A stretch of DNA of 64,000 nt from a bacterium (GTDB taxonomy: Bacteria; Babelota; Babeliae; Babelales; JABGSX01): NCBI GenBank assembly GCA_018647505.1, contig JABGSX010000006.1, positions 245-64,244 on the forward strand. The letters run 5' to 3'. A program made the position numbers and the translations under genes. Positions 4,520 to 44,784 of the stretch are shown in pieces. Every line of letters starts with the position of its first letter. The stretch's first letter is position 1. Under the pieces are notes generated by a model. The model was not told where the DNA came from. It searched no databases and saw only the letters and a program-made list of their open reading frames with translations.

Positions 4520-6994
<2,475 letters not shown>

Positions 6995-7032: not shown

Positions 7033-7061
7033 AGAGCAGGCACTTTTTAAGCGCCTGCTCT
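7033..7061. terminator. Bidirectional hairpin terminator between convergent gyrB and the HMG-CoA reductase gene
   Basis: AGAGCAGGC (7033-7041) pairs with GCCTGCTCT (7053-7061), followed by TTTTAT. Confidence 0.75.
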
Positions 7062-7073
7062 TTTATCTTTCAG

Positions 7074-8309
7074 TTAACGATTCAATCTTTTGTGCGACCT
7101 TGCCAAATCATGCGAACATAATGCTCCAATAAGCGAAAGTTCTCCGGCCAAAACACCGACTGCAATTATTTCGGCTAATTTTTTTGAATTGTACCCGGTC
7201 TCTTTGATAGGAGCATGCACTCCAAGAATTCTAAGGCATTCATTTTGCGTAGCAAGAACTGTACCTCCACCAATTACACCAACTTGCAACGCAGGCAACG
7301 TAACAGAGAAAAGAACATTTTTACCAGACTTTTCAACTGTTGTAAAACCATGTGAACCATCGACCACATGAGCAACATCTTGGCCCATGGCAATAAACAT
7401 TGCAGCAATTATATTTGCAAAATGAGCGTTATAACCTAAACTGCCCGCACTTGCACTGCCTAAAATATTTTTTCGATAATTTAAATCGACTAAACAATCA
7501 ACAGTTGTTTTTAAGTTGTTCTCAACAATTTCTTTTGAAATCATTACCGACGCAACAACTTTTTTGCCACGCCCATTAATTAAATTCATTGCGCTAGGTT
7601 TTTTATCAACACACATATTTCCCGACTCGGAAATAAATTCAACACCCCTGAAAACACTAACAATATATTCCACAATTTTTTTGCCTGCAATGGTGATCAT
7701 ATTCATACCCATTGCATCGCCAGTATTTGCTTCCAATTGTAACCAAACATTAAGACCAACAACATATGGGTTTATTTTTTCTACTCTTATAAAGTCTTCA
7801 TCCTGCTCGCCAACCTTTTTTAAATCCTCAAAATTTTCATATACCCATATGCAAAATCTTTTTGCTTCTACAATCGAATTGACTTTGAACAATATCGACC
7901 GAGTCTGAAAATCCTTCAGAACGACAACCTGTGCCCCCCCGCTTTTGTTTATTACACTACAACCTCGATTTACAGAAGCCGCCAGCGCACCTTCTGTTGT
8001 AGCAAGCGGCAGGTAAAAATTCCCCGTGGCATACTCACCTACAATTTTGACTGGCCCCACAATAGCCAAAGGAACCTGCACTGTACCAATCATATTTTCA
8101 ATATTTGCCGTGCACGTTTTTGGATCTAAACAAAAATTTCCTATATTTTCTAAGCATAAGTCCAATTGCGATTCTACAAACTCTCGTCTTATTCGTGTTG
8201 CTAGGTCAAGACCAACAAGATCATCAAGCTGATATAATTTTATTTTGCCACTAGATAATTTTTCAAAAATATCTTTCTTTTTACTCTGATAATCTAAATT
8301 TGTAGCCAT
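7074..8309 (-). CDS. hmgA: HMG-CoA reductase, class I type
   Basis: LATTEGALAASVNRG and DAMGMNM motifs. I place the start at ATG 8309 (SD AAGGGGG 8 nt upstream) rather than the ORF-track TTG at 8339. Confidence 0.9.
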   Translation of the reverse strand: MATNLDYQSKKKDIFEKLSSGKIKLYQLDDLVGLDLATRIRREFVESQLDLCLENIGNFCLDPKTCTANIENMIGTVQVPLAIVGPVKIVGEYATGNFYLPLATTEGALAASVNRGCSVINKSGGAQVVVLKDFQTRSILFKVNSIVEAKRFCIWVYENFEDLKKVGEQDEDFIRVEKINPYVVGLNVWLQLEANTGDAMGMNMITIAGKKIVEYIVSVFRGVEFISESGNMCVDKKPSAMNLINGRGKKVVASVMISKEIVENNLKTTVDCLVDLNYRKNILGSASAGSLGYNAHFANIIAAMFIAMGQDVAHVVDGSHGFTTVEKSGKNVLFSVTLPALQVGVIGGGTVLATQNECLRILGVHAPIKETGYNSKKLAEIIAVGVLAGELSLIGALCSHDLARSHKRLNR

Positions 8310-8691
8310 AACAAATTGCCCCCTTGCGACCACTTTCAAAAACTTTCCTAAAGACCACCTCTACATTTTTCCCTATTACAACCTCATCTGCTTCACAATC
8401 GACAATTTGAGCAGTCAAACATGGGCCTTCGCTCAACTGAACAATAGCCAAAGCATATGGTATTTCACATATTATTTTTTCTAAAACATCGTCGCCTGCT
8501 ATAGGAGTTCTTATAATCGTAAATGTTTTTATTACACCTTGACCTTCAAGCTTATGATCCTGCAATTTTGAAGATCCACACTTTTTGCATATCGGTCTTG
8601 CGGGAAAAAATAGCGCTCCGCACTTTTCGCACTCTTTGCCAACCAACTCGTAATACTCAGGCATCTTTCGCCAAATTTTTGCCGACGTCAT
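8281..8691 (-). CDS. DUF35-type zinc-ribbon/OB-fold protein (thiolase/HMG-CoA synthase partner subunit)
   Basis: CEKCG...CKKCGS zinc ribbon followed by a beta-rich region. Start set at ATG 8691 with SD GAGGAA, 7 nt after the thiolase stop. Confidence 0.8.
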   Translation of the reverse strand: MTSAKIWRKMPEYYELVGKECEKCGALFFPARPICKKCGSSKLQDHKLEGQGVIKTFTIIRTPIAGDDVLEKIICEIPYALAIVQLSEGPCLTAQIVDCEADEVVIGKNVEVVFRKVFESGRKGAICYGYKFRLSE

Positions 8692-8698
8692 AATTTCC

Positions 8699-9853
8699 TC
8701 ATTTTTTGAATATGTGAACCACCGCTGTTCCGCCGCTTCCACCAATATTGTGAGTCAGTCCAATCTCAGCGTTAATACATTTTCCCTTCGTCCGACCACT
8801 TAAAATAGATACTATTTCTACAGCTTGCATCACACCAGTCGCTCCAATGGGATGTCCTTTTGCCTTTAGACCCCCCGAAACATTTATAGGTATCTTACCT
8901 GTTATGTCAGTATTTCCCGCCTGAACAAATGGTCCGGATTTTCCTTTCTCAACAAAACCCAAATCTTCTATAGCCAGCAATTCTGCAATTGTAAAACAAT
9001 CATGAACCTCCGCGATTTGCACATCACCGGGACCAACTCCAGCTTGTTGATACGCCTGCTTTGCTGCCAGAACTGTTGCTTTCAGCGTGAGCATATCATC
9101 TCTGTCGTGTAAACTTATTGTGTCAGTTGCGCAACCACTTCCAGCAATCCACACAGGCTCGACACTATTTTTTTGTGCGTAATCTTTGCTTACTAGAATC
9201 AATGCTGCCGCACCATCAGAAATTGGACTAGCGTCCAAAAGCTTAATCGGATCTGCAAGTTTGGTTGACCTAAGAACATCTTCCATCGTAATTTGTCTGT
9301 GAAATTGGGCGTATGGATTTGAAAGCGCATTTTGATGATTCTTAACAGCAACCAACGCCATCTGCTCCTCTGTTGTTCCAAACTTTTCCATATGCATACG
9401 TGCAATCATGGCATACAATCCAGGAAACGTCGCTCCAAAAACAGCTTCATTCTCATAGCTTGCTGCAGTTGAAAGAGCTCTGGTAACAGCAGCCCCTGAA
9501 ATGTCAGTCATTTTTTCCGCACCAACAACGACAACAACATCATGCATACCGGAAGCTACGTCTATGTAGGCCTGCCTCAATGCCAATCCTCCAGATGCAC
9601 AGGCACCCTCCACTCTGGTCGCAGGAACATTTTTTAGACCAGCCCAATCGGCAAACAGACTTCCAAGGTGCTCCTGAGAGGAAAACAATCCACCAGACAT
9701 CGAACCAACATACAGTGATTGCACGCTATCTCGTGAAATTCTTGCATCATTAAGCGACAAATTAATCGCACTTGTTGCCAGATCCTGTAAACCGTTGTCC
9801 CACAACTGCCCAAACTTTGTAGCGCCAACCCCTATTACAGCAACATCTCTCAT
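8699..9853 (-). CDS. Acetyl-CoA acetyltransferase (thiolase), archaeal-like short form
   Basis: 384 aa. Catalytic Cys context VEGACASGG, C-terminal GHPIGATG and NIGGSGG blocks. Confidence 0.9.
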   Translation of the reverse strand: MRDVAVIGVGATKFGQLWDNGLQDLATSAINLSLNDARISRDSVQSLYVGSMSGGLFSSQEHLGSLFADWAGLKNVPATRVEGACASGGLALRQAYIDVASGMHDVVVVVGAEKMTDISGAAVTRALSTAASYENEAVFGATFPGLYAMIARMHMEKFGTTEEQMALVAVKNHQNALSNPYAQFHRQITMEDVLRSTKLADPIKLLDASPISDGAAALILVSKDYAQKNSVEPVWIAGSGCATDTISLHDRDDMLTLKATVLAAKQAYQQAGVGPGDVQIAEVHDCFTIAELLAIEDLGFVEKGKSGPFVQAGNTDITGKIPINVSGGLKAKGHPIGATGVMQAVEIVSILSGRTKGKCINAEIGLTHNIGGSGGTAVVHIFKK

Positions 9854-10884
9854 TCCAATACCCCCGTATTTTTAAGATAATCGGTGTAGCTTATATAAAT
9901 TTTATTTTGTATGTATGATTCTACCGTTCTCGCTCGCGACCGAACCTTTTCGATTTCATCTGTAACGACAATATCAAAGCTGTCACTTCCTGCCCCCGAT
10001 CCATATGAGGTAACCAAAATGCTTTCACCCGGCTTTGCCACATCCAAAACAGCAGACAAACCCAACATCGATGCACCAGAATATGTATTTCCAATACGAT
10101 CAACTAAAAGACCCGGTGCATATTGCTTTTTGGTAAAGCCCAGGACCTTCGCAACTCTTTCTGGAAACTTTCCATTTGGTTGGTGAAATACAACATAATC
10201 GTAATCGTCCGAAGACTTACCAACCTCACCTAGCAACATCTTTGTCGCATTAATAATGTGCTTGTAATATGCTGGCTGGCCGGTAAATGCACCTGCGTGA
10301 GAAGGATATTTTTCATGCTCTCTTCTCCAAAAATCAGGGGTATCTGAAGTAAAGGAAACTGTATGATTTATTTGTGCCACAACATTATCTAATCCCAAAA
10401 TAAAAACTGCACCCCCCGCCGCTGCTGTATATTCAAGCGGATCACCCGGAGATGCCTGTGCTGTATCACACCCTCCAACAAGTACCAGCTTGGCCATTCC
10501 TGATTTAATCCACGCTAAACCAACTTGTATAGCAGCAGTTCCAGCCTTACAGGCAAACTCAAAATCTGCAGTAGTATATTTATTACCAACTCCTAATGCC
10601 TCCGCCAACACCGTTCCGGTAGGTTTTACCGCATATGGATGAGATTCACTTCCAATGTACAAGGCATCCAAGGTATCAGGTTTAATTCCGGCAACCTTTA
10701 TAGCATTCCTTGCAGCCTCCACAGAAATTGTAATTGTGTCCTCATCAATTCCAGGAACAGATTTTTCGATAACTTTAAGTCCAGACTTTATCTTCTCAGC
10801 ATCTGCAGACGACGAATTAGCAACTTCTTCAACCCGAATTCTATTGCGCGGAATATAACAACCCCAACCAACAATGCCAGCCAC
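9850..10884 (-). CDS. HMG-CoA synthase, short (~345 aa) archaeal-like form
   Basis: 344 aa. EFACKAGT catalytic Cys context, HQPNGKF, NTYSGAS. GTG start with SD AGGAGGG. 4-nt overlap with the thiolase start. Confidence 0.9.
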   Translation of the reverse strand: MAGIVGWGCYIPRNRIRVEEVANSSSADAEKIKSGLKVIEKSVPGIDEDTITISVEAARNAIKVAGIKPDTLDALYIGSESHPYAVKPTGTVLAEALGVGNKYTTADFEFACKAGTAAIQVGLAWIKSGMAKLVLVGGCDTAQASPGDPLEYTAAAGGAVFILGLDNVVAQINHTVSFTSDTPDFWRREHEKYPSHAGAFTGQPAYYKHIINATKMLLGEVGKSSDDYDYVVFHQPNGKFPERVAKVLGFTKKQYAPGLLVDRIGNTYSGASMLGLSAVLDVAKPGESILVTSYGSGAGSDSFDIVVTDEIEKVRSRARTVESYIQNKIYISYTDYLKNTGVLE

Positions 10885-10974
10885 TATTAACCCTCCTAAA
10901 AGTTAAAGCTTTAGTTCTATTTATACAAAAAAATTCGCCTTAATATAATACCGTTTAGCCTTTTTTGCAATTAT

Positions 10975-21338: not shown

Positions 21339-22652
21339 ATGGAAAAAATTGTCATAATAGGCGCAGGCCTTACCGGACTGTCAGCAGCATACCACCTCGA
21401 AAAACAGGGTTTCTACAATTACAAAATATTTGAAAAAGAATCAGAACCAGGAGGGCTTTGCAGGTCAATACACCAAGATGGATTCACATTTGATTACACT
21501 GGGCATCTTTTGCACATTGGTGATCAATATTTTAGAAGCCTAATTCAATCTGTTGTAGGCACAAAAAATTTTAATCTTATCAAACGCAAATCATTTATTT
21601 TTTCGCATGATACTTATACACACTACCCTTTCCAGGTTAATCTTCGCGGCCTACCTACCAACATTATTTCCGATTGCATTGAAGGCTTTATTAACAAAAA
21701 AAACTACAAGCACCCCCTTTCAAAAACAATATTTTACTACTGGGCTCTTAAACACTTTGGCCGCGGTATGGCAAAACACTTTTTCTTTCCATATCAGAAA
21801 AAAATATTTTGTTATGACTTAAAAAAACTATCCACCTCTTGGATGGGAAGATTTGTTCCAAAAACATCTCTTGACCAAATCATAGAAGGAATCACACAAG
21901 ATCCAGAAGAAAAAAATATCGGATATAACTCTCAGTTTTATTATCCAAAAAAAGACGGCATAAACTACTGGGTACAAAAATTTGCAGAAACACTTAAAAA
22001 CCCAATTCATATCAGTCACCATGTAAAATATGTCGACCTTAAAAACAAAGCTGTTATTTTTTCAAACGGAACAACGGAAAATTTTACAAAACTTATTACT
22101 ACCATGCCATTAAACATACTACTACGCTCACTAAAGGAGCCTTCAAACTCATTTTTAAAAAGCAAACATCACAAGCTTTTGTGTAACTCAGTGTTAAACT
22201 TTAACCTTGGAATAGATCGGCCAAATATATCTGACATGCACTGGGCATATTTTCCAGAAAAAAAATACCCTTTTTACCGCATGGGCTTCTATCATAATTT
22301 TTCAAACTCTTTAGTACCAAAAAATCACAGTTCCCTATATGGTGAAATTTCTTACCGAAGCGCCTCAGCACAAAAAAAGGAAAACTTGATACTTAATGGG
22401 AAAAATGCTGCCAAAAACATTCTCAATTTTTCTGATAAAAATATTGCGACAGAGAAAATATTGGATATAAAACCAGCATACGTAATTTATGATCGATGGC
22501 GTGACAAAAATTTGAGCAAAATACACAGGCGACTTAATGAAGATTCCGTTCATTCTATTGGTAGATACGGCGAATGGAAATACTCAAGCATGCAAGAAGC
22601 TATTTTGGATGGTAAACAAACAGTTGAAAAAATTTTACCTAGGAAAAATTGA
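21339..22652 (+). CDS. FAD-dependent oxidoreductase, UDP-galactopyranose-mutase/amine-oxidase-like
   Basis: 437 aa. N-terminal dinucleotide-binding IVIIGAGLTGLSAAYHL...EKE..PGG, C-terminal GRYGEWKY block reminiscent of Glf-type enzymes. Confidence 0.65.
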   Translation: MEKIVIIGAGLTGLSAAYHLEKQGFYNYKIFEKESEPGGLCRSIHQDGFTFDYTGHLLHIGDQYFRSLIQSVVGTKNFNLIKRKSFIFSHDTYTHYPFQVNLRGLPTNIISDCIEGFINKKNYKHPLSKTIFYYWALKHFGRGMAKHFFFPYQKKIFCYDLKKLSTSWMGRFVPKTSLDQIIEGITQDPEEKNIGYNSQFYYPKKDGINYWVQKFAETLKNPIHISHHVKYVDLKNKAVIFSNGTTENFTKLITTMPLNILLRSLKEPSNSFLKSKHHKLLCNSVLNFNLGIDRPNISDMHWAYFPEKKYPFYRMGFYHNFSNSLVPKNHSSLYGEISYRSASAQKKENLILNGKNAAKNILNFSDKNIATEKILDIKPAYVIYDRWRDKNLSKIHRRLNEDSVHSIGRYGEWKYSSMQEAILDGKQTVEKILPRKN

Positions 22653-23566
22653 AAATGATCGCTTCAGAATTTTATAAAAATATTATCGTGTTGGTGACTG
22701 GGGGTGCAGGATTTATCGGATCACATATCGTAGAAGACCTTGTAGATCTTGGAGCCAAAGTTAGAGTCATTGACAACCTATCTTCTGGATTCTCTCAAAA
22801 CCTTGAACACATAAAAAACAAAATCGAATTTATAGTTGGAGATATAACAGACGCCAAAACAGTTTTACAAGTTACAAAAGATTGCAAAGTCATATTCCAC
22901 TTAGCAGCCTTTGTTTCAGCTCCAGACTCTGTTAACAAACCACACGAATGCTACAGCACAAACATAGAAGGTACAAAAAATTTATTGGCCGCGGCAGCAA
23001 AAAATAACGTTGAGCGATTTGTTTTTTCATCTTCGTCGGCAGTATACGGAACAAAAGATCAACCATGTACAGAAAGCATGCCCTGCCAACCAGAAAGCCC
23101 TTATGGATTTTCAAAATTTATGGGAGAGCTATGGTGTAAAGAATACTCCCAAACATTTGGTTTAAAAACAGTTTGTTTAAGATATTTTAACGTCCACGGA
23201 TCTAGACAAAATCCAGAAGGTGGCTACGCTGCCGTTGTAGCAAAATTCAAAAGCTTGATGGCACAAAATAAACCTGTCACCATTTTTGGCGATGGAAAAC
23301 AAACACGCGACTACATACCGGTTGAAAGTGTTGCTAACGCAAATGTAACCCTTGCAATGATGCCCAAACATTTGATGGCAGGAGACACCTATAATATCGG
23401 AACTGGTAAATCTATTGACTTGATTGAACTTGTTGGGCTTTTGAAAAAAGATTTTCCGAAATACACCGCGCAAATTAATTTTGAACCAGCACGGCAAGGA
23501 GATATTAAAAATTCGTCTGCCGACATTTCAAAATACAACGGAGCACTCGAATTGCTTAATAAATAA
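22649..23566 (+). CDS. NAD-dependent sugar epimerase/dehydratase (SDR family)
   Basis: 305 aa. VTGGAGFIGSH Rossmann motif and the YxxxK catalytic pair (YGFSK). 4-nt overlap with the upstream gene. Confidence 0.9.
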   Translation: MKMIASEFYKNIIVLVTGGAGFIGSHIVEDLVDLGAKVRVIDNLSSGFSQNLEHIKNKIEFIVGDITDAKTVLQVTKDCKVIFHLAAFVSAPDSVNKPHECYSTNIEGTKNLLAAAAKNNVERFVFSSSSAVYGTKDQPCTESMPCQPESPYGFSKFMGELWCKEYSQTFGLKTVCLRYFNVHGSRQNPEGGYAAVVAKFKSLMAQNKPVTIFGDGKQTRDYIPVESVANANVTLAMMPKHLMAGDTYNIGTGKSIDLIELVGLLKKDFPKYTAQINFEPARQGDIKNSSADISKYNGALELLNK

Positions 23567-23935: not shown

Positions 23936-25081
23936 ATGAGTAAAAAAGATTATTATGAAACTCTAGGGGTAACAAAAAGTGCCTCTCAAACAGAAATAAA
24001 AGCAGCCTACCGAAAATTGGCTCTTAAACATCATCCAGACAGAAATCCAAACAATAAAGAATCAGAATCCAAATTCAAAGAAGCCGCATCGGCATACGAA
24101 GTTCTATCCAGTCCAGAAAAAAGAAAACAATACGATCAATTTGGTCACGAAGGTTTCCCCAATATGGGTGGCGGTGGAAACTCATGGGGCCAAGACGGCA
24201 TGAGTATGGATGACATTTTTTCAAATTTTTCTGACATTTTTGAAGGATTCTTTGGAGATTCATTCGGCGGAAAAAGACAACATAAAAGCGTAGGACCAAC
24301 ACCCGCAAGAGGGCACGATTTAGCTAAAGAAGTTAAAGTAACACTTAAAGAATCATTCTTAGGTGTAAAAAAAGATGTTGATTTTTACCACTTTGTTCCA
24401 TGCGAAAATTGTAATGGAAAAGGGGTAAAAGCCGGCACATCTGTTTCTAAGTGCTCAGCATGTCAAGGCCATGGTCAAATTCAATATCGCCAAGGTTTTT
24501 TCTCGTACAGCCAAACGTGTGGAAGCTGCACAGGCCAAGGTTACACAATTCCAAATCCGTGTCCAGGCTGCTCCGGACAATCCCGCATACAAAAATATGA
24601 CAAGTTTAAAGTAACAATTCCTGCTGGTATTTTTGATGGCGCAGAATTGCGAATTACCGGAAAAGGTGACGCTGGCATTTATGGTGGATCAGCTGGCAAT
24701 TTGTATCTGCGTGTTAACGTCGAAGAAGATAAAAAATTCAAACGTATCGACAATGATCTTGTCTGCACTGTTATGCTAACATACCCACAATTAGTTCTTG
24801 GCTGCCAAATAGAAATTGAAAATATCGATGAAACAAAAGAAACTGTTAAAATTCCAAAGGGCTGCCCTTCTGGAGAAAAAATTACAATTAAATCAAAAGG
24901 CTTTTCGTCACTAAAAGGTAGCAGCCGAGGAAACTTAATTATTAAGACAAAATGTCACATTCCTAAAAAACTACCAACCGAAACAAAACAACTTTTAAAA
25001 GATTATTCTGAAAAAATTGGAACCGACACAACGGATTCTGATTCCAGTATTACAGGATTTTTTAAAAAATTTTTAGGTTGA
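23936..25081 (+). CDS. dnaJ: Molecular chaperone DnaJ
   Basis: 381 aa. J-domain HPD (KHHPDRN), G/F-rich region, four CxxCxGxG zinc repeats. Confidence 0.97.
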
Positions 25082-25615
25082 CGGTCTAAGTCTGAAAATT
25101 GTTCTGGCTATTTCATTGTCTAGAAATTTTATCTGTCCATCTTTGTCAACAATAACAGCAGAGCACCCTACCGGTCCATCCAAAGACCCTTCCGGGTCTC
25201 TCGCTTCAACAACAGCACAAAATTCATTGTAAGGTTCCCAAACGGCCGTGCGTTCAATCCCGCTCAACCACAACCATGCTCCTCCACGCAAGCGTTTCTG
25301 CAACTCAATTCCAGCCGCCATCATAACTCGGCCACTTGTAAAAATTTGGTTTCCCTCACCCATAAAAGAGACATCAAACGATTCCAAATATCTTGCCCGA
25401 GCCTGGTCAAACAATCTTTTTAATTTAACAGAATATGAAGCAACCAAAATTGGAACAACGGCTACATCCCCACCCTCTTTTACTTCATCATCCTTTTCTT
25501 CTTCGCGATAGTCTTCGGCCCTAGAATCACAACACCAATTCCAACAGCACGCGGCACTCATATATCCACGACCTAAAAAGAAAACGATACTTATAAATAA
25601 AAATATTTTTTTCAT
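25073..25615 (-). CDS. Small secreted/lipo-protein, island member 13 (paralog group A)
   Basis: 180 aa. [37 protein letters not shown]. Overlaps the dnaJ 3' end by 9 nt (convergent). By-eye similarity to 25627-26121. Confidence 0.7.
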
Positions 25616-25626
25616 TTTTAACCCCT

Positions 25627-26121
25627 CTAAACTGCAAATTTAAAAAGCGCATCCCCTTGTTCCGCCGACAAAATTTTTGCAGTAGACCTACCTACATAAA
25701 CATATCCATATGAAGCTGTATCCGCACCATCCAGTTCTTCTACGCATCTTACACTAGCTACAACAACATTTCCTCCTGCAATCTCCTTTGTTACATCAAT
25801 TTCATCTGTAAGCAAGGCCCATTGTCCACCTTTTTGCCGCTCAACCCGCATAGCAGCTTGAACCATTTCCCTCGCTAAATCAGTGCGGTCTTTTTTTCTA
25901 TTTTGAAAATATTTTACTCTTGCTTTTTCAAGCTCCTTCTCCAAAGAAAGGTCTCTTGCTTGAGGCATTTCAACTTCTTCTTGCCTAGAATCACTTGAAA
26001 AGCCCAAAAGCTTTTTTAAGCAATCACACCCCAAACTACTTGTAGTTATTCCGAGTAAGGATAAAAGTAATAAAATTTTGTTATTTTTTTTAATAAAACA
26101 ATACATCTTCATTAAAACCAT
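25627..26121 (-). CDS. Small secreted/lipo-protein, island member 12 (paralog group A)
   Basis: The ORF-track start at 26130 is TTG. In-frame ATGs lie at 26121, 26112 and 26106. Signal sequence ...KILLLLSLLGITTSSLGCDC. The C-terminal half aligns by eye with member 13. Confidence 0.65.
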   Translation of the reverse strand: MVLMKMYCFIKKNNKILLLLSLLGITTSSLGCDCLKKLLGFSSDSRQEEVEMPQARDLSLEKELEKARVKYFQNRKKDRTDLAREMVQAAMRVERQKGGQWALLTDEIDVTKEIAGGNVVVASVRCVEELDGADTASYGYVYVGRSTAKILSAEQGDALFKFAV

Positions 26122-26126
26122 CAAAA

Positions 26127-26681
26127 TCAATATTCTGACCCTTTAAAACAACGAGTAATAAACCCAACCTTGTCAGAATACGAAATTTGCACATCACATC
26201 CATCTCCAGCCACAATGCTCAATTGTCCACGACAACCATCTCCAGGAAACGAAACAAATATTGAAAACTTTTCTAAAACAGGAAGCGTCGTTAGCCTTAC
26301 TCTCTTTATATTCATAGCAATAACAGATTCCGCAAATTTACAAATCTCGTGTGTATCCGAAGCTTTCATTTTTGCAAAATAGGCCCAGATAATATCCCAA
26401 CACGCACGACAAAAATTTCTCTCCACATTGGCTTCAACAACACCGCCCTCGGAATAAAAACTCTCGCTAGAAAAAACTGTTCTTAAAAAATCTCCAATCC
26501 CCCTTGGACCATGACCTTCTAATATTTTGGCTGCCGTGCCAGCCCGCCAAACACTACCAACGGTCACAATACTTTGGGCAAGACTCTTTAACTCTATAAC
26601 CTCTGCACTTGCGCAACACAAAATGGAAGGAAAAATTAATAATATTATCCACAACCATTTAACTCCCCAAACTTTATACAT
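26127..26681 (-). CDS. Small secreted protein, island member 11 (possible group A relative)
   Basis: Start set at ATG 26681 (SD AAGGGGGA). MYKVWGVKWLWIILLIFPSILCCASAEV. Confidence 0.65.
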   Translation of the reverse strand: MYKVWGVKWLWIILLIFPSILCCASAEVIELKSLAQSIVTVGSVWRAGTAAKILEGHGPRGIGDFLRTVFSSESFYSEGGVVEANVERNFCRACWDIIWAYFAKMKASDTHEICKFAESVIAMNIKRVRLTTLPVLEKFSIFVSFPGDGCRGQLSIVAGDGCDVQISYSDKVGFITRCFKGSEY

Positions 26682-26700
26682 TTTAAACAAGTCCCCCTTT

Positions 26701-27153
26701 TTAAGTATCAGGCTCCAAACCAAAAGACCAAGGGCCTAACAGATCTTCATCACTACTACCCAAACTCTCTAAGTATTCCTCCCAAGGAAACTTTTCCCTT
26801 TCAGGTTTTGGCCTCCAAGTTTTAACAGTTTTCAACTTTACAGGCACAACTCTTTTAGCCTCTTCTTTTTTTCTCTTTGCAGAAGAATATGAATCTCCAG
26901 CTCGTTCTAAAAAACCTGTATATCCACCATTTTCCAGAAAAGCATCCACACTCGCAATTTGCATTCTTAAAGCTGTCATATTTCTTTGTAACTGCATGAT
27001 TACCGCACGCCCAGCGTTTTGCAACCTTCTAGAACGCGCTGATTCATGCCTAGAAAGTACAGCACCACGGCTTCTGTATGCCCCAAATTGTGAAGAAGAA
27101 ACAAGATAAGTTGAAAAAGAAAAAAGCAAAATCACTATTAAAAAATTTTTCAC
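26701..27153 (-). CDS. Small secreted Arg-rich protein, island member 10
   Basis: 150 aa. GTG start with SD AGGGAG. MKNFLIVILLFSFSTYLVSS. First gene of a tightly packed four-gene unit. Confidence 0.65.
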   Translation of the reverse strand: MKNFLIVILLFSFSTYLVSSSQFGAYRSRGAVLSRHESARSRRLQNAGRAVIMQLQRNMTALRMQIASVDAFLENGGYTGFLERAGDSYSSAKRKKEEAKRVVPVKLKTVKTWRPKPEREKFPWEEYLESLGSSDEDLLGPWSFGLEPDT

Positions 27154-27245
27154 GATTCGCTCCCTTTAAAAAGGATTTTTCTTTATGATTGGTATAGCAT
27201 ATAGGAAAAAAATTGGAGATGGTATACTTTTTGAAAAAATTCTTA

Positions 27246-27277
27246 ATAAAAAGCAGCCCCCAAAAAACAAGGGCTGC
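27246..27277 (-). terminator. Hairpin terminator after island member 9
   Basis: GCAGCCC (27253-27259) pairs with GGGCTGC (27271-27277). On the minus strand the hairpin is followed by a T-run. Confidence 0.7.
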
Positions 27278-27306
27278 AAAGTTTAACTTTTTATATGTTT
27301 TTATAT

Positions 27307-27615
27307 TTAGATTCTGGTTAGATCTTTCCTGGAAGAAGGACCAGTATCTGTGGCGCCTGTAACACCACCGGTATGAACACCACCAGAACCACCTTTAAAA
27401 CGACGGAACGACATCAAAGCTTCAAAAGCTCTTGCAGCAAGACCTTTCCCCGGCACTAAAGCTCTTCCTGTTGGTACGTAAGCCTTGCCACCACGATCTG
27501 TTTTTATCTCAGCCCCTTTTCCTGCGCACGCACCCAAAAAACACGTTTCTTTATCACCCGCACTTGCCTGAAAAACATAGGCTAAGATAACAGCTGTTAT
27601 CAAAATTCGTTTCAC
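27307..27615 (-). CDS. Small secreted Gly-rich protein, island member 9 (conserved-signal-peptide group B)
   Basis: 102 aa. GTG start with SD GAAGGA. MKRILITAVILAYVFQASA. Confidence 0.7.
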   Translation of the reverse strand: MKRILITAVILAYVFQASAGDKETCFLGACAGKGAEIKTDRGGKAYVPTGRALVPGKGLAARAFEALMSFRRFKGGSGGVHTGGVTGATDTGPSSRKDLTRI

Positions 27616-27725
27616 GTTTTATCCTTCGTAAAATATTTTTAATATAATAGCTTAATGAACACTTAAAAAGGCGACCGCATTTTACAAAGCGGTCGCCTTT
27701 TTACTTATTAAATTTTTATATTTTC
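27616..27725 (-). repeat. Intergenic module copy 1 (3' flank, terminator, leader)
   Basis: Shares AATTTAATAAGT, the GGCGACCGC/GCGGTCGCC hairpin and the TAAGC..ATTA leader with 28122-28276 and 28544-28700. Shorter than the other two copies. Confidence 0.8.
27665..27702 (-). terminator. Hairpin terminator (module copy 1)
   Basis: GGCGACCGC (27670-27678) pairs with GCGGTCGCC (27689-27697), flanked by A and T runs. Confidence 0.85.
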
Positions 27726-28121
27726 CTAATCGCCAGTACCGCCACGAGACTCACCCAAAGCACCTCCTAGTCTGCTTCTGAATTCATCTAATACACCAAG
27801 ACTTTCACCATGTTCGGCAACGGTTCTAGCAAGACCTTCGACAGTTTCTTTTGTTGCGAAAGGGACAAGATCACCTCTTTTTGCACACTCTGCAAGGTCA
27901 CCGTGGACTACCCTATCTCTTTCTAGCTCCACAACTCTTTCTTGAAGTCTCGTAACCAATCCATGAGCTTTTACACCTAAATACGCAGCTCCGACTACTA
28001 ACAGAGCCCCACCAGTTACCTGCGCAGCTCTTCTTCCTGAAATCCTCGGTAAGCGACGTTCAGCTGCACTTGCTTGTGCCACACATGCCAAAAAAATAGC
28101 GGCTATCAAAATTCGTTTCAT
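27726..28121 (-). CDS. Small secreted/membrane-anchored protein, island member 8 (group B)
   Basis: 131 aa. MKRILIAAIFLACVAQASA, then the Gly/Ala-rich hydrophobic helix VTGGALLVVGAAYLGV, then an Arg/Glu/Leu/His-rich tail. SD AAAGG. Confidence 0.75.
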   Translation of the reverse strand: MKRILIAAIFLACVAQASAAERRLPRISGRRAAQVTGGALLVVGAAYLGVKAHGLVTRLQERVVELERDRVVHGDLAECAKRGDLVPFATKETVEGLARTVAEHGESLGVLDEFRSRLGGALGESRGGTGD

Positions 28122-28276
28122 GTATTACCTTTCGTGAAAACTTAGTAATGTTAAAAATGTTTAATACAATGGCTTAACTTTATAGCACATGAACACTTGG
28201 TTGTAAACAAAAAAAGCAACTACCACATAAAACAATAATCGCTTTTTTACTTATTAAATTCTTATATTTTCTATGC
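28122..28276 (-). repeat. Intergenic module copy 2 (3' flank, decayed terminator, promoter, leader)
   Basis: Aligns by eye along nearly its full length with 28544-28700, except that the hairpin arms have decayed. Confidence 0.85.
28179..28207 (-). promoter_or_regulatory. sigma70-type promoter of island member 8
   Basis: Minus strand: TTTACA (28207-28202), 17-nt spacer, TATAAA (28184-28179). The same arrangement is conserved at 28601-28629. Confidence 0.55.
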
Positions 28277-28543
28277 CTACCAATCCAAGCGCTCTTCGAC
28301 GACTCTTATTGTTGCTAACCTTGTCTCACGTTCACGCGCAAGCTCTTCTTCGGTCTTGGCATCAGTATCTACAGCAACCTCTATAGAAGGCCCACCTAGT
28401 TCACGACTTAGTTTGCTAACAGCTTCTTTTTTTGCACAGGCAGCACATTTTACACACACCTTACACTTATGCCGTTTTCCGTCACTTGCGCTTGCTTGTG
28501 CCACACATGCCAAAAGAATAGCCACTATAAAAATTCTTCTCAT
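28277..28543 (-). CDS. Small secreted Cys-motif/acidic protein, island member 7 (group B)
   Basis: 88 aa. MRRIFIVAILLACVAQASA, then HKCKVCVKCAACAKK (CxxCxxCxxC), then a Glu/Arg-rich tail. Confidence 0.7.
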   Translation of the reverse strand: MRRIFIVAILLACVAQASASDGKRHKCKVCVKCAACAKKEAVSKLSRELGGPSIEVAVDTDAKTEEELARERETRLATIRVVEERLDW

Positions 28544-28600
28544 TTGTTAACTTTCGCCAAAACCTTATAATTTAAAAAATGCTTAATACAACGGCTTAAT

Positions 28601-28629
28601 TTTATAGCACATGAACATTTGGTTGTAAA
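28601..28629 (-). promoter_or_regulatory. sigma70-type promoter of island member 7
   Basis: Minus strand: TTTACA (28629-28624), 17-nt spacer, TATAAA (28606-28601). Starts directly after the terminator T-run. Confidence 0.55.
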
Positions 28630-28630
28630 C

Positions 28631-28670
28631 AAAAAAGGCGACCGCCTTTTGCAAAGCGGTCGCCTTTTTT
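28631..28670 (-). terminator. Hairpin terminator (module copy 3)
   Basis: GGCGACCGC (28637-28645) pairs with GCGGTCGCC (28656-28664), flanked by A and T runs. Confidence 0.85.
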
Positions 28671-28700
28671 ACTTATTATTTTCTTTAAAAAGAACTTTTA

Positions 28701-29234
28701 TTATTCGGCGTATGCTCCTGAAGTAAGAGCAACATGCTCGCCTAGAGCGGTTTCCACAGCTACAATTCTTCCTGCGTGAGATCCCAAGGCATCACTATGT
28801 GCTCCAATAGCTCCACCATGTTCTTCAAGAGATGCTTCATGTCTGGAAAGAGTATCCCCCTGTCCGGAAATAACGCGACTCTGTGCGGAAAGAGTTTCTT
28901 CATGTCTCGCTGACGCTTTTCCCAATACTCTCAACGACGCACCTAAATCAGCTGAATCTGTTAACGCTGACAATCGTGCAGCCATTCTTCCACCAAGCCC
29001 CCAAGCCTTTTTACCACCAACATAAAGTAAGGCTAAGGCTCCGGCGCCACCAGCAACTTTGGCTTGTGTTCTATAATCAACACGTGTAAAACGATCTGTT
29101 GCATAACTTCCAGCACCAAGTGTTGCTACAACCGCCGCTCTTTTACCCCATTTTTTAGCGGCCGCTTTTTTTCCGCCAGCCATCATGTGAGCTCCGACAG
29201 ACAACAACAATATTGCAAAAAGTAAACGTTTCAT
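28701..29234 (-). CDS. Secreted/membrane-anchored protein with His-heptad tail, island member 6
   Basis: Start set at ATG 29234 (SD AAAGGG). MKRLLFAILLLSVGAHMMA, G/A-rich helix AGGAGALALLYVGGKKAW, then nine x-H-x-x-x-[LI]-x heptads at the C-terminus. Confidence 0.75.
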   Translation of the reverse strand: MKRLLFAILLLSVGAHMMAGGKKAAAKKWGKRAAVVATLGAGSYATDRFTRVDYRTQAKVAGGAGALALLYVGGKKAWGLGGRMAARLSALTDSADLGASLRVLGKASARHEETLSAQSRVISGQGDTLSRHEASLEEHGGAIGAHSDALGSHAGRIVAVETALGEHVALTSGAYAE

Positions 29235-29343
29235 AAAAAAAACCCTTTCTGAGTTTGAAAAACCTATTAAACACAACTTCCTACCAACTTCAACCTAGTT
29301 TATAACATAGAAGATTTTTAAAGTAAACCCCACAAAATAACAC

Positions 29344-29814
29344 CTAGCAATGTCTTGCTTTCCAACTTGTTTTAGCACTTTTTGCTATATAATATACCGA
29401 GGGAAAATTTCGATTTAAAAATCTTAAAAATCGTCCATCATCACTGCATGAAATTCGCCGTGTAAGAACGCCCTCTATTTCTGGTTGTTCTTGGTCGGCA
29501 ACGGCATTTTCACCTTCGTAACAGCCTCCTTGTGACTTTTCTTCAAGCTTTTTGCTTAAACTTGGACGTTCTTCTTCTTCATGATGTTCCGAATTATTTG
29601 GGGGATTTTCAGAATCCTCTGGCCCACATGGCATATCATCTTCAACGAGAACCGACGGTCCACGATAAGAATCATAAGCTTTTTTTCCAGCTACAGTTAA
29701 ACATGCCAGAACCGCAATCCCCGCAGCTACATTTTGCCCTTTACTCATCTCAGCCCTGGAGGCAAAGTGAACACTCATGGCAAGAAAAACCAGCATCAAT
29801 AAACATTTTTTCAT
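29344..29814 (-). CDS. Secreted/membrane-anchored acidic protein, island member 5
   Basis: 156 aa. MKKCLLMLVFLAMSVHFASRA, second helix VAAGIAVLACLTVAGKKAY, then an acidic segment. Confidence 0.7.
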   Translation of the reverse strand: MKKCLLMLVFLAMSVHFASRAEMSKGQNVAAGIAVLACLTVAGKKAYDSYRGPSVLVEDDMPCGPEDSENPPNNSEHHEEEERPSLSKKLEEKSQGGCYEGENAVADQEQPEIEGVLTRRISCSDDGRFLRFLNRNFPSVYYIAKSAKTSWKARHC

Positions 29815-29999
29815 GTTTGTACTCCTTGTGTAATTGTACGATTAATAAAACAGTATGGTTTATAATATGATTGATATTTTTTACCACAGAAAAAATGATT
29901 TGCCAAGCAAGTTTGATGTTGAATTATCCGTTCTTACTTAGTGGAATAAGCGATAGCGAATGTGGCCAAATGTATACGAACATAAAGAAAAGATTTAAA

Positions 30000-30314
30000 T
30001 TAATTTAATGGCGCCTCTGCAGCCCGAACACCATCGCCTGTATCTAACTCCATTTGCAATTCAGCTTCAAATTGTTTTTGTCTTGCTTGTGCTGCTTCTT
30101 TTTGCTTCGCTTCTCTATCCGCCTGTGCACGTTCTAATGCAAGATCTCGTTGGTCTTCTTGAACTCCACGTATAGTATTGGCCGTCATCATTCGCCTTAA
30201 CTTAGAAGTAATGACCGAAACTTGTCTTGGAACTGCGGATTGTTCTTCTTTGTCAGCTGAATACATAAATACACAAAAGCTCAAACAAAAAAATAAACTA
30301 ATAATTTTTTTCAT
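30000..30314 (-). CDS. Small secreted charged (Q/E/R/A-rich) protein, island member 4
   Basis: 104 aa. MKKIISLFFCLSFCVFMYSA. SD TGGAG. Confidence 0.7.
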   Translation of the reverse strand: MKKIISLFFCLSFCVFMYSADKEEQSAVPRQVSVITSKLRRMMTANTIRGVQEDQRDLALERAQADREAKQKEAAQARQKQFEAELQMELDTGDGVRAAEAPLN

Positions 30315-30359
30315 AAAAACTCCATATTTAATTTTTCTTGAATCTACAATAGATTTTGA

Positions 30360-30722
30360 TTACTTTCTTTTAGCCGCACTAACACTAGATCGCCAAGCAG
30401 AAAAAACTTTTTTTACCAACTCTTTATGATCAATAAAAATACTTCTCATTTCATCCATGCCCTGTTCACGGCTTTCCACCTCTTCTTGATACATACTCTT
30501 TGAATAGTTTGTTACTGTAGACCAATTGTCATCATCATCGCAAGGCACAGCCTCCCCGGGCAATTCAACAACAGAACAATTAGGCCTTAAAAGGCTCTCT
30601 ACTGTTTCACAACCATCCGTGCCTCCTGTCGGTTCACCAAAGGCTCCAGCGTATACACGATTATCAGCCCCCCTCAACCAAAAAGTGAAAAACAATAAAA
30701 GACAAAACAAAGCTCTTTTCAT
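30360..30722 (-). CDS. Small secreted protein, island member 3
   Basis: Start set at ATG 30722 (SD AAGGA) rather than the ORF-track TTG at 30743. MKRALFCLLLFFTFWLRGADN. Confidence 0.65.
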   Translation of the reverse strand: MKRALFCLLLFFTFWLRGADNRVYAGAFGEPTGGTDGCETVESLLRPNCSVVELPGEAVPCDDDDNWSTVTNYSKSMYQEEVESREQGMDEMRSIFIDHKELVKKVFSAWRSSVSAAKRK

Positions 30723-30784
30723 AAAATCCTTAGAAATATTCAAAAAAATTATAATGTTATAGAGTAAAAAGTTTACAAAAAAAA

Positions 30785-30819
30785 GAGGAAAAAGACTATT
30801 AATTTAAGTCTTTTTCCTC
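30785..30819 (-). terminator. Hairpin terminator after island member 2
   Basis: Perfect 12-bp stem: GAGGAAAAAGAC (30785-30796) pairs with GTCTTTTTCCTC (30808-30819). On the minus strand it is followed by a T-run. Confidence 0.85.
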
Positions 30820-30838
30820 AAAAAACAATTTTTACTTT

Positions 30839-31372
30839 TTATCTACTAATACTCCTTTGCTTTCCATCAACCCCACGGTTAAATTGAGCCATCAATGCAT
30901 CAAGAGAATCAAAATCACCGGACCTTTTCGCACTCGATGGTCTTGGTTCCGGCTCTTCTCCGCCCTCATCTAAAGCGTCCAAAACTCTTGTGGGATCTCG
31001 GCGAAGCCTGGTTGCAACTCCGCGAGGAACAAACGAAACCCTTCTACCGCCACGCTCCACTTGCAGGAGACTTGTTGGGACATGCGGAACACCTTTTACA
31101 GCAAGTCTTCCCATTGCACAAAATAACGGTGGCACAGCTGGTGTTTCATCTGCGGTCTCAGCATGGGCTTCTGTAGCATAAGCTTCTCCCCCCGAAGGAG
31201 GCGCATCTTCATGACCCTTCGCCCCAAATATTTTCATAACCAAAGCTGATAAAAATAATTTGTGTGGTTCGCTCGGGCAGGCACCATAGGCACCGGCACG
31301 ATGCCTTGACGCACCCTCTAAAATCCCAGTCGACAAAACTATAAACAAAAAAAGAGCTGCTATTTTTTTCAT
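30839..31372 (-). CDS. Secreted Ala/Gly/Arg/Pro-rich protein, island member 2
   Basis: 177 aa. MKKIAALFLFIVLSTGILEGA. SD AGGGAA. Confidence 0.7.
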   Translation of the reverse strand: MKKIAALFLFIVLSTGILEGASRHRAGAYGACPSEPHKLFLSALVMKIFGAKGHEDAPPSGGEAYATEAHAETADETPAVPPLFCAMGRLAVKGVPHVPTSLLQVERGGRRVSFVPRGVATRLRRDPTRVLDALDEGGEEPEPRPSSAKRSGDFDSLDALMAQFNRGVDGKQRSISR

Positions 31373-32079: not shown

Positions 32080-33189
32080 TCACACACCTAACTTTCGCTT
32101 CTTTAAACTTTTTTGCGAAAATACTATTTTCCTTTTTTCTTTTATGCTCAATTGATTAAGAACATAATAAAAAAAATCACGGTCCGCACCTTTTACCACC
32201 GCCTGCTCATGAGCCTCCGACAAACATACCGGATAGCCTTGGCCCTTTTTGCTCTGATCAAAACAAACCGATGCTACAACATCAACCAAACTTTGATCGT
32301 TTGCAATCCATGCTGGAAATTCAACACGAGCAACCTCTTGCCCAACGTTCATGTAAAAAAAATGCGGAACTAAGTGTTCCGGATACTGTTTGGTAATTCG
32401 ACTGTTGTTTTTAAAAACAATGGACCTCTGTCCCTCTTGCAAATAAAAACTTGCTATCGAGCTGTCGACCAAGTGATCAACTGAATTTGCCGAGTTATAT
32501 TTACTGTGATCAAAAGCACATAACTCTAAACGAATCAAATTTACAAGCTCCTTGCTTTTTGGAAAGCTTATGTAGCTTGCTGTTATTATTTTTTTCTCAT
32601 ACACCCGCTCAAGAAGAGCGATATAGATTGACAAGAATCTTTGTTTTATTTCATGTCCATAATTTTCCAAATGCCAAAAAATTAATGAGCCATCAAAAAG
32701 CAAAATTGTCCCGGGATTTTTTGAAGCATAATCAATACCGACCTTGAATTCCAGTTCTTGCCTGCGGCAATCTACAATCTCAGATGAAAAACTTTCTGCA
32801 ATATCAGAAACATCCTTCATTGAAAAAACATACGGAACAGTGATCATTTTTGCAGGAATATAATTTTTGGAATAATTAAGATGAACAATCCCTACATTAA
32901 CCAAAAAACAAGATGCCCCATAATGCCTATCGGGATAAATTTGGGAACCATCAACGGCCACAACCTTGTATTCAGAACTTGGCTTAACATTATATTTTCT
33001 ACCAAGCAATCCACCCCAATGTGGTACAAGCCACGGACTTTGAGACGCCTTAACCTTTTGATCAAAAGTACTCTCTTGAGAAATTTTGGTCCACACTTTT
33101 TCTGCACGCAAATATTCATCTGAAAAGTCTAAAAATAATTCATCCGTCGCTAAAGACAAGGCTTTTACAACCTTGGCACGGTCAAGCAT
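32080..33189 (-). CDS. NurA-domain-like nuclease (tentative)
   Basis: 369 aa. VVAVDGSQIYPDR and LLFDGSLIFW (two DGS blocks), and GQGYPVCLSEAHEQAVV near the C-terminus. This matches my memory of the NurA 5'-3' nuclease domain pattern. Start overlaps the sufU stop by 8 nt. Confidence 0.55.
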   Translation of the reverse strand: MLDRAKVVKALSLATDELFLDFSDEYLRAEKVWTKISQESTFDQKVKASQSPWLVPHWGGLLGRKYNVKPSSEYKVVAVDGSQIYPDRHYGASCFLVNVGIVHLNYSKNYIPAKMITVPYVFSMKDVSDIAESFSSEIVDCRRQELEFKVGIDYASKNPGTILLFDGSLIFWHLENYGHEIKQRFLSIYIALLERVYEKKIITASYISFPKSKELVNLIRLELCAFDHSKYNSANSVDHLVDSSIASFYLQEGQRSIVFKNNSRITKQYPEHLVPHFFYMNVGQEVARVEFPAWIANDQSLVDVVASVCFDQSKKGQGYPVCLSEAHEQAVVKGADRDFFYYVLNQLSIKEKRKIVFSQKSLKKRKLGV

Positions 33190-33580
33190 TTTTATCTCGA
33201 TATTTTTTTATTCCATCTTGAATTGCTCTCAACGACAAAACTGCGCATTTTATTCGCGCAGGACCAAGCTCCATTTTGATCAAATTTAAAACATCATGTT
33301 CTTCTAGTTTATCAATTTCCTTAATAGTCTTTCCCTTACAAAACTCAGTAAGTATCGATGCTGTTGCCATACTTATCACGCAACCGTCTCCACTAAATTT
33401 TATTTCTGTAATAACACCATTATTGACCTTCGCATCTATATTAACCTGATCACCACAGGTTGGATTGTGATGCAAACTAGAAATGTCTGGGGTTTTCAAT
33501 AAACCTTTGTTTTTTGGATTTTTGTAGTGCTCCTGCATGTGATGCGCATATAGATTTTTAATGCTCATTTTGTGCTTCAC
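33182..33580 (-). CDS. sufU: SufU/IscU-type Fe-S cluster scaffold/sulfur acceptor protein
   Basis: 132 aa. NPTCGD, GDGCVISMATAS and a C-terminal KCAVLS cysteine. Confidence 0.85.
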   Translation of the reverse strand: MKHKMSIKNLYAHHMQEHYKNPKNKGLLKTPDISSLHHNPTCGDQVNIDAKVNNGVITEIKFSGDGCVISMATASILTEFCKGKTIKEIDKLEEHDVLNLIKMELGPARIKCAVLSLRAIQDGIKKYRDKNA

Positions 33581-35588: not shown

Positions 35589-36554
35589 TTGAAAAACAGA
35601 CTTTTTGCCCGAACATTGAATTTACACAGAAAAAGATTACAATTATGGTCTACTGTAAAATTAAGTATGGTTTTGTTATTAACATTTTTTATGGCACAGT
35701 GCGGCCTAAGCGAGAGATCAATGATAGAACATAAGAACGAAGCTCAAGAAGAAGACCCTCCCTCTTTATCTAAGTCTAAAACCACAAAACATATTATCTT
35801 TGACCTTGGCGGAGTAATGATACACTTTCCAAAAATTCGCCCTCTGTTTTATATTGGAATTGGAAATATTTTGTGGTACACACTCATAAAACGAAAAAAT
35901 CCAACCAAAATTTTGTACCATCTACTAGATATCGCTTACAAAATGGTCGACGAAAAAGAAAAAACCGATATCGTATTTAAAGACCACGTAATGTTTAGAA
36001 ACCACCCGCTAACAGCACTAACAAAAGAAGCCCTTTTGGGACACGTTACTTGTAACCAATTGCTAAAAGCAACAAAAGAGGCTTTGGTGAAAGCACAAGC
36101 TAAAAAGTTAATTGAACCACGAGAGCGAATGATCTTAGAAAAATTTGCAGATTTAATTATCGATCCAAAAACTGGCACACAGTATCTTGAAATATCAAGT
36201 TCATGCGTAAGCTTAATCCGTAAACTTAAAGAAGACAAAAACAACAAACTATATATTTTATCCAATTGGCCTGCAGACTCATTTGAGCTTTTAAGCCACT
36301 TACACAACGATGTTTTTAATCTATTTTACGGAATGGTAATCTCATCACATGTTCATCTGATAAAACCAGACAAAAAAATATACGAAAAACTATTAGTAAA
36401 ATACAATCTTGACCCTAGGTGTTGTTATTTTGTTGACGACCAGCAGGAAAACTTGGATGCCGCCAAAGATGTTGGAATCCACGGAGTTCTATGGAAAAAT
36501 GCAAGTGACGCAGAAATCAAACTAAAGAAACTTCACGTTATAGAAGATGTATGA
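35589..36554 (+). CDS. HAD-superfamily hydrolase with N-terminal membrane/signal segment
   Basis: 321 aa. Motif I IIFDLGGVM and motif IV YFVDDQQENLDAAKDVG. The TTG start in the ORF track is uncertain. Confidence 0.7.
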   Translation: MKNRLFARTLNLHRKRLQLWSTVKLSMVLLLTFFMAQCGLSERSMIEHKNEAQEEDPPSLSKSKTTKHIIFDLGGVMIHFPKIRPLFYIGIGNILWYTLIKRKNPTKILYHLLDIAYKMVDEKEKTDIVFKDHVMFRNHPLTALTKEALLGHVTCNQLLKATKEALVKAQAKKLIEPRERMILEKFADLIIDPKTGTQYLEISSSCVSLIRKLKEDKNNKLYILSNWPADSFELLSHLHNDVFNLFYGMVISSHVHLIKPDKKIYEKLLVKYNLDPRCCYFVDDQQENLDAAKDVGIHGVLWKNASDAEIKLKKLHVIEDV

Positions 36555-44760: not shown

Positions 44761-44784
44761 GCTCTTTACCTTTTTTTCAACTAG

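Follow-up and report, generated by a model that had tools for sequence, protein, structure and literature searches.

An archaeal-type upper mevalonate operon in a Candidatus Dependentiae bacterium and its affinity with loci of Woesearchaeota-like DPANN archaea

[quoted passage not shown] On the minus strand of a 64-kb stretch of bacterial DNA (contig JABGSX010000006.1; hereafter the window), four adjacent genes encode the same three proteins in the same gene order, followed by an HMG-CoA reductase (HMGR). For each of the three the complex is the best PDB match; HMGS keeps its catalytic tetrad, the thiolase its motifs and DUF35 its zinc ribbon. The window differs in that its host is bacterial, its proteins have clearly diverged, and HMGR is joined to the operon through an overlapping start codon.

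The same chemistry, from acetyl-CoA to mevalonate, is performed in Enterococcus and Staphylococcus by mvaS/mvaE, but these systems use another HMGS subfamily, a thiolase II and a class II HMGR, and they have no DUF35 protein. Homologous two- or three-component assemblies of the thiolase superfamily with a DUF35 subunit are also found in bacteria as BbsAB and PhlABC/MucABC, the latter being HMGS/ACAT/DUF35 Friedel-Crafts acylases in which the tetrad of HMGS and HDxF of the thiolase are gone (PMC12960953). These assemblies have lost both features and make no HMG-CoA, whereas the window proteins retain both. For the phylum Candidatus Dependentiae, Hoshino & Gaucher (2018, PMC6107057) reported that it is the only bacterial phylum lacking the methylerythritol phosphate (MEP) pathway and possessing the mevalonate (MVA) pathway only, and that its AACT and HMGS cluster with those of the Candidate Phyla Radiation (CPR), in an archaeal/CPR clade far from the bacterial and eukaryotic enzymes. 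Their paper makes no mention of DUF35 or of operon structure and puts Dependentiae with CPR, whereas the affinity found here is with DPANN archaea; mevalonate does not come up in the text of Yeoh 2016.

Taken together, the observations reported below make it likely that the window carries a functional, coupled upper-MVA operon of a Dependentiae bacterium, and that the four genes were inherited as a block from Woesearchaeota-like DPANN archaea, or share a recent common source with them, the transfer being an old one.

Gene identities and operon structure

Protein families were assigned with curated profiles and their cut-offs, and structural relatives were sought by phmmer alignment against all PDB sequences. 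On the archaeal HMGS equivalog model TIGR00748 the HMGS scores 498 bits, where 353 are required, and on PRK04262 it scores 523 bits, where 244 are required, whereas on the bacterial mvaS model TIGR01835 it reaches 126 of the 360 bits required. Its best PDB match is 6ESQ chain I (E 6e-120, against only 4e-57 for PhlA), and all four members of the catalytic tetrad of that chain (Glu82, Cys114, His238 and Asn270) are identical in the alignment. The thiolase scores 555 bits on PRK06064 and matches 6ESQ chain A best (E 7e-109), with CAS (CxS), HDCF (HDxF) and GHP (GHx) kept, while the DUF35 protein matches the Pfam families zf-ChsH2 (E 6e-10) and OB_ChsH2_C (E 2e-12) and aligns best with 6ESQ chain E (E 1e-28), including the CxxC...CxxC cysteines of its zinc ribbon. 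The HMGR clears the cut-off of TIGR00533, the model for NADPH class I enzymes (463 against 442 bits), and remains below that of the class II model TIGR00532 (34 against 260 bits); its best PDB match is the HMGR of Methanothermococcus thermolithotrophicus (6HR7, E 9e-113), with TTEGAL, GDAMGMNM, DKKP and the C-terminal His region all aligned.

The best profile and PDB matches are thus the archaeal HMGS/thiolase/DUF35 complex and an archaeal class I HMGR, in agreement with the archaeal-type module that an earlier reading, made from the letters and their open reading frames (ORFs) and referred to here as the sequence-only reading, had proposed. Its assignment of the small ORF to the zinc-ribbon/OB-fold DUF35 family is upheld by the profile search, the DAMGMNM motif that it saw in the reductase is present, and the layout that it described (four minus-strand genes of the lengths given in the table, overlapping by 4 and 29 nt and separated once by 7 nt) agrees with both the ORF listing and the sequence. 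The clear reading of these gene sequences is that they specify a genuine acetyl-CoA-to-mevalonate module.

The HMGS gene starts at a GTG with an AGGAGG Shine-Dalgarno sequence 8 nt 5' of it, and its junction with the thiolase gene is an ATGA in which stop and start overlap by 4 nt. The 7-nt gap lies between the thiolase TGA and the DUF35 ATG. DUF35 and HMGR then share the 29 nt from 8281 to 8309, the HMGR ATG lying inside the codons for the C-terminal YGYKF of DUF35. These two overlapping junctions would imply translational coupling. A longer DUF35, of 153-154 aa, is predicted in the mechanical ORF list and by gene callers on metagenome copies; the 136-aa start is the better call because the 6ESQ chain E alignment begins at residue 5 of that form and archaeal orthologs are 137-139 aa long. 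The operon is followed, 13 nt past the HMGR stop, by a terminator-like hairpin that sits between the convergent HMGR and gyrB genes. The promoter-like site upstream of HMGS was recognised only by its fit to the consensus, and matches of this kind are no commoner here than in shuffled sequence.

Table. Coordinates of the operon and of the features around it (positions in the window)
Feature	Position	Strand	Details
HMGS, archaeal short type	9850..10884	-	344 aa; GTG 10884 to TGA 9850
Acetoacetyl-CoA thiolase, archaeal SCP-x-like	8699..9853	-	384 aa; ATG 9853
DUF35 scaffold protein, zinc ribbon CEKC...CKKC and OB fold	8281..8691	-	136 aa; ATG 8691
Class I NADPH HMGR	7074..8309	-	411 aa; ATG 8309; contains GDAMGMNM
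Intrinsic-terminator-like hairpin	7033..7061	-	13 pairs, 7 of them G-C, with T-rich tail; terminator scan and sequence
Upstream intergenic region with Shine-Dalgarno sequence and promoter-like site	10885..10974	-	90 nt; TTGCAA-17-TATATT at 10970-10942
gyrB, host-lineage marker, convergent with operon	4559..6994	+	811 aa; PRK14939, 1052 bits
Four tandem paralogs with tetratricopeptide repeats (TPR) and S-adenosylmethionine (SAM)-methyltransferase domain, 5' of operon	10975..18468	-	562-617 aa; 35-52% mutual identity

By analogy with the Methanothermococcus complex, the thiolase would join two acetyl-CoA molecules to acetoacetyl-CoA, a thermodynamically unfavourable step, and the short HMGS, held to the thiolase by the DUF35 scaffold in what would be a complex with a shared CoA-binding site, would add the third acetyl-CoA at once, so that acetoacetyl-CoA is channelled and the first step pulled forward. 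The class I HMGR would then reduce HMG-CoA to mevalonate with NADPH, and the overlapping stops and starts may keep the four proteins in matched amounts. The mevalonate would presumably feed lower-pathway genes elsewhere in the genome and yield isopentenyl diphosphate, chiefly for carriers of the bactoprenol type.

The bacterial host and the relatives of the operon

The uS9 protein of the window scores 149 bits on the bacterial model and falls below the cut-off on the archaeal one, and Pfam and NCBIfam scans identify DksA, TadA, TilS, DnaJ, SufBCDS, NifU, MetRS, signal peptidase I (LepB), an M23 peptidase, a PilB-type ATPase, BatA-D-like proteins, PlsC and bacterial topoisomerase I (TopA). The best named matches of GyrB, at 65-68% identity, are exclusively Candidatus Dependentiae/Babeliales. 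Judged by these genes, the host is a Candidatus Dependentiae (TM6) bacterium. We considered the possibility that the whole window is archaeal (DPANN), since all named HMGS matches are archaeal, and it was ruled out by the bacterial uS9, DksA, TadA, TilS, LepB and TopA and the Dependentiae GyrB; with DnaJ and SufBCDS, the same proteins substantiate the bacterial backbone claimed in the sequence-only reading.

The closest relatives of the operon itself lie elsewhere. Every named match among the top 120 for HMGS and the top 120 for HMGR is archaeal, mostly from Woesearchaeota/Nanoarchaeota, and none in either set bears a Dependentiae name; the top HMGS match is 72% identical (Woesearchaeota P0003) and the top HMGR match 63%. 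A scan of species-representative genomes returned at least 80 loci, nearly all archaeal, together with one from Saccharimonadales (CPR) and four from Ignavibacteriaceae, and a metagenome scan with DUF35 gave no confirmed relative. When the four window proteins were compared with these loci by tblastn, HMGS, thiolase and DUF35 proved to be in this order in nearly all of the approximately 80 related loci. Among the loci compared, HMGR follows directly after DUF35 in only a few, namely L005, L006, L085, L087, L093 and L094, and in one Thermoproteota locus outside their clade it follows DUF35 after a 52-nt gap.

These six are Woesearchaeota-like MVA superclusters that share the HMGS-thiolase-DUF35-HMGR core with the window, at up to 72, 66, 56 and 64% identity, respectively. 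L085 (72% for HMGS, 65% for thiolase, 53% for DUF35 and 63% for HMGR) and L087 (68, 64, 56 and 64%) are the closest loci for all four proteins. Archaeal neighbours identify L087, on a 472-kb contig, by Nop56/58, fibrillarin, RpoN and RpoL, and L005 by Nop56/58 and fibrillarin; L006 is labelled Woesearchaeota. The DPANN superclusters add a diphosphomevalonate decarboxylase (MDD)-like gene, two GHMP kinases, a polyprenyl synthase and, in L005, IDI2, whereas the window has the upper four genes only, between bacterial flanks. Between L085 and L087 the MDD-like genes are 65% identical and the GHMP-kinase genes 43%. The lower genes of the DPANN-type loci L005, L085, L087, L093, L094 and L095 look like those of a kinase/decarboxylase (eukaryote-like) pathway and not of the isopentenyl phosphate kinase (IPK) route.

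The embedded start codon of HMGR recurs in these relatives. It lies inside the YGYKF codons of DUF35 in the window, in L085 (12610-12635), in L087 (12567-12592) and in L091 (1243-1271), with overlaps of 26-29 nt, and L094 has the same 29-nt overlap as the window. The DUF35/HMGR coupling junction is therefore conserved across domains, between the window and the archaeal L085 and L087, and because the embedded start is common to the window and DPANN loci, the four genes probably travelled as one block. L091, which shares its assembly with a GyrB relative at 74% identity, has an HMGR of 411 aa and an overlap of 29 nt; we leave it unassigned and do not count it as Dependentiae, its HMGR and DUF35 being no closer to the window than archaeal sequences are.

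Several further loci concern the distribution of the module. The trio of HMGS, thiolase and DUF35 occurs in other bacteria, namely Ignavibacteriaceae (L049, L050, L064 and L074) and Saccharimonadales (L008), at 55-61% identity to the window for HMGS and thiolase and 37-41% for DUF35, and one of the four Ignavibacteriaceae loci is confirmed as bacterial by type IX secretion system (T9SS) proteins and RF-1. An archaeal-type trio with DUF35 is thus not unique to the window bacterium. In L074 an AtuA gene (acyclic terpene utilisation) comes after the trio, with no HMGR found within 10 kb downstream, so that the trio may serve a different pathway there.

The probable sister of the window is L090. 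Its HMGS is the closest of all (72%) and is sister to that of the window in the HMGS tree (84% bootstrap), the ORF directly 5' of its HMGS is homologous to the methyltransferase part of the paralogs that precede the window operon (37-49% identity, E down to 3e-31), and its accession series also holds GyrB relatives at 74% identity. L090, whose layout is the same, thus probably stems from a sister Dependentiae. Two short contigs, L095 (ERZ4200950) and L096 (ERZ27237574), have an MDD-like and/or GHMP-kinase gene directly 5' of HMGS, which is the DPANN-type layout, with an HMGS 68% identical to that of the window. Their accession series are those of the operon-bearing L002 (ERZ4200951) and L001 (ERZ27237606), so that DPANN-type organisms and the window host appear to co-occur in the same sample series.

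Origin of the operon

Neighbour-joining trees were built from Kimura-corrected distances with 200 bootstraps, using 64-69 sequences for the proteins of the trio and 10-13 for HMGR. All four window proteins fall in a clade with sequences of Woesearchaeota-like DPANN loci that share the operon architecture, with bootstrap values of 92-96% for HMGS, 100% for thiolase, 92-93% for DUF35 and 71-92% for HMGR. Within this clade L005 and L006 branch outermost, and the CPR and Ignavibacteria sequences lie outside it. Including archaeal and bacterial homologs, the trees thus place none of the four proteins within ordinary bacterial clades, and they favour the horizontal acquisition that the sequence-only reading had put forward as a possibility. 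Block transfer from DPANN to Dependentiae is the best-supported origin, although it is not proven. As L090 has the same layout, the transfer probably took place before at least one sister Dependentiae lineage had split off.

That the operon is simply an archaeal fragment mis-assembled or mis-binned into a bacterial contig would explain why its nearest homologs are archaeal, and the sample series does also contain DPANN-type contigs with related clusters. We nevertheless regard such an artefact as extremely improbable. The identical operon is present in four independent assemblies from different runs (L001-L004), and two of the four span both bacterial flanks, with gyrB on one side and the TPR-methyltransferase genes and tilS on the other, which rules out an assembly chimera. 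The operon proteins are merely 54-72% identical to any archaeal sequence and are therefore not those of a recent archaeal fragment. The GC content at third codon positions (GC3) of the operon is 0.28-0.34, its GC3 and codon usage are indistinguishable from those of host genes, and its elevated overall GC stems from codon positions 1 and 2 only. A compositional signature of recent transfer was sought as well and none was seen, so any transfer is likely to be old. It is also very unlikely that the trio is a repurposed acyltransferase of the PhlABC/MucABC or BbsAB type, working in secondary or aromatic metabolism. The characterised bacterial HMGS/ACAT/DUF35 complexes do include Friedel-Crafts acylases (PMC12960953), and PhlA, PhlB and PhlC appear among the weaker PDB matches, but the E-C-H-N tetrad and HDxF are intact in the window, its HMGS matches 6ESQ far better than PhlA, and its proteins score only 30 bits on the BbsA model (cut-off 250) and 221 on BbsB (cut-off 750). 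Because the tetrad and HDxF are retained and a biosynthetic class I HMGR appears to be translationally coupled to the trio, we read the locus as a mevalonate module and not as an acylase of the PhlABC type.

The strongest of the alternatives is vertical inheritance, in which an ancient upper-MVA pathway of the archaeal/CPR type was ancestral to Dependentiae and CPR and the likeness to Woesearchaeota reflects transfer from a bacterium to DPANN, or slow evolution. Hoshino & Gaucher (PMC6107057), who group the AACT and HMGS of Dependentiae with those of CPR, also propose a deep ancestry, which would sit well with the wholly host-like codon usage, with the presence of the module in the probable sister lineage, and with the position of the window as the most divergent member of the clade for thiolase and DUF35, which is compatible with a basal placement. 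Against it, the outer branches of the clade are archaeal, namely L005 with its Nop56 and fibrillarin and the Woesearchaeota locus L006; the CPR locus L008 falls outside the clade, with a DUF35 only 37.5% identical to that of the window; the named matches among the top 120 for HMGS and HMGR are archaeal without a single Dependentiae; and the four genes of the DPANN loci are embedded in a larger and complete MVA supercluster, as would fit a source. On balance we think vertical inheritance unlikely.

A number of observations weigh against the preferred reading, an old transfer of a functional block from DPANN, and have to be set beside the evidence for it. The trees are unrooted and rest on simple distances and few close taxa, and the window is the longest branch in the clade. 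For thiolase, identities among the archaeal members reach 78%, against 60-66% with the window. A long branch fits a fast-evolving endosymbiont, and it leaves room for a near-basal position of the window, and for a thiolase that is basal rather than nested. The single CPR locus, outside the clade in our trees, is at odds with the Dependentiae-CPR grouping of AACT and HMGS by Hoshino & Gaucher. No Dependentiae genome occurs among the at least 80 matches listed in the genome scan, which is not conclusive for absence, and three Dependentiae contigs that keep the order glmS-rpsI-dksA-tadA-gyrB (L088, L089 and L092) have other genes and no MVA operon beside gyrB, so that the location of the operon is lineage-specific. 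A 26-aa fragment at the end of L092 was considered as an HMGR C-terminus and rejected. On the functional side, profile scans (Pfam/NCBIfam) of the approximately 50 ORFs of the window detected no mevalonate kinase (MVK), phosphomevalonate kinase (PMK) or IPK, MDD, isopentenyl diphosphate isomerase (IDI) or MEP enzyme, and tblastn with archaeal MDD-like, GHMP-kinase and polyprenyl-synthase queries gave no match in the window. Lower-pathway genes are accordingly missing from these 64 kb, as the sequence-only reading had stated, and the presumed fate of the mevalonate draws on the literature for the phylum Dependentiae, the window being 64 kb of the genome.

A further, rather unlikely possibility is that a Woesearchaeota-like DPANN archaeon gave the coupled four-gene core, stripped of its lower-pathway genes, to one Dependentiae lineage, where it replaced or supplemented a CPR-like version. 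If true, such a donation would be the mirror image of the exchange reported by Castelle et al. (2021, PMC8204110), in which the MEP pathway of bacteria became widespread in one clade of Woesearchaeota, and would imply direct genetic exchange between two co-occurring groups of ultra-small obligate symbionts.

Neighbouring genes and significance

Each of the four tandem paralogs between the operon and tilS begins with a signal-peptide-like N-terminus and also has TPR repeats, a SAM-methyltransferase domain and a C-terminal region that is conserved among them; they may be secreted effectors of an intracellular parasite. This TPR-methyltransferase family has no match in approximately 85 other loci, all archaeal ones included, and the syntenic region of L089 is without the block. 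Since a member also stands directly 5' of HMGS in L090, the family serves as a mark of Dependentiae-type surroundings. Between tilS and dnaJ (21339-23566, plus strand), the gene for a flavin amine-oxidase/phytoene-desaturase-like protein of 437 aa, which stays below the cut-off of the PRK07208 family, runs into the start of one for a GalE-like epimerase/dehydratase; L089 has unrelated small ORFs there.

Other parts of the window contain approximately nine small ORFs of 127-198 aa with no Pfam match (25073-31372, minus strand), which may be a lineage-specific gene family or cassette, and a gene for a NurA-domain nuclease that overlaps one for a NifU-like scaffold (32080-33580, minus strand), with a 579-aa ORF with no Pfam match as its divergent neighbour (33721-35460, plus strand). 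NurA is usually paired with the helicase HerA. An HAD-family hydrolase appears as two overlapping ORFs of 321 and 155 aa (35589-37018, plus strand), both of which align with the C-terminal portion of the HAD profile, and could reflect a duplication or a frameshift. Likewise, the PilB/GspE-type secretion ATPase appears divided between two ORFs 24 nt apart (43588-45243, minus strand), with the MshEN N-domain at 44785-45243 and the T2SSE ATPase at 43588-44760, which may reflect a split gene, a frameshift or an error of sequencing.

The archaeal/CPR-like mevalonate route is already known for Dependentiae, and the window is a good example of it and not a discovery; nothing is overturned, since the pathway type of the phylum and the biochemistry of the complex have both been published. 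What is added here is the affinity with Woesearchaeota-like DPANN, the shared embedded start codon, the loss of the surrounding lower-pathway genes, and the DPANN-type clusters in the same sample series. The locus thus offers a well-delimited case for the debate about an ancestral or a transferred origin of mevalonate genes in bacteria, and, as a compact four-gene cassette, it might find use in engineering. Dependentiae live as obligate intracellular parasites in protists, and their metabolism is very reduced. In the window, a DUF35-scaffolded upper pathway that is best known from archaea would be present as one compact operon in such a parasitic bacterium, and the isoprenoid supply of Dependentiae, which is needed for the lipid carrier of the cell wall, would depend on this upper-MVA module.

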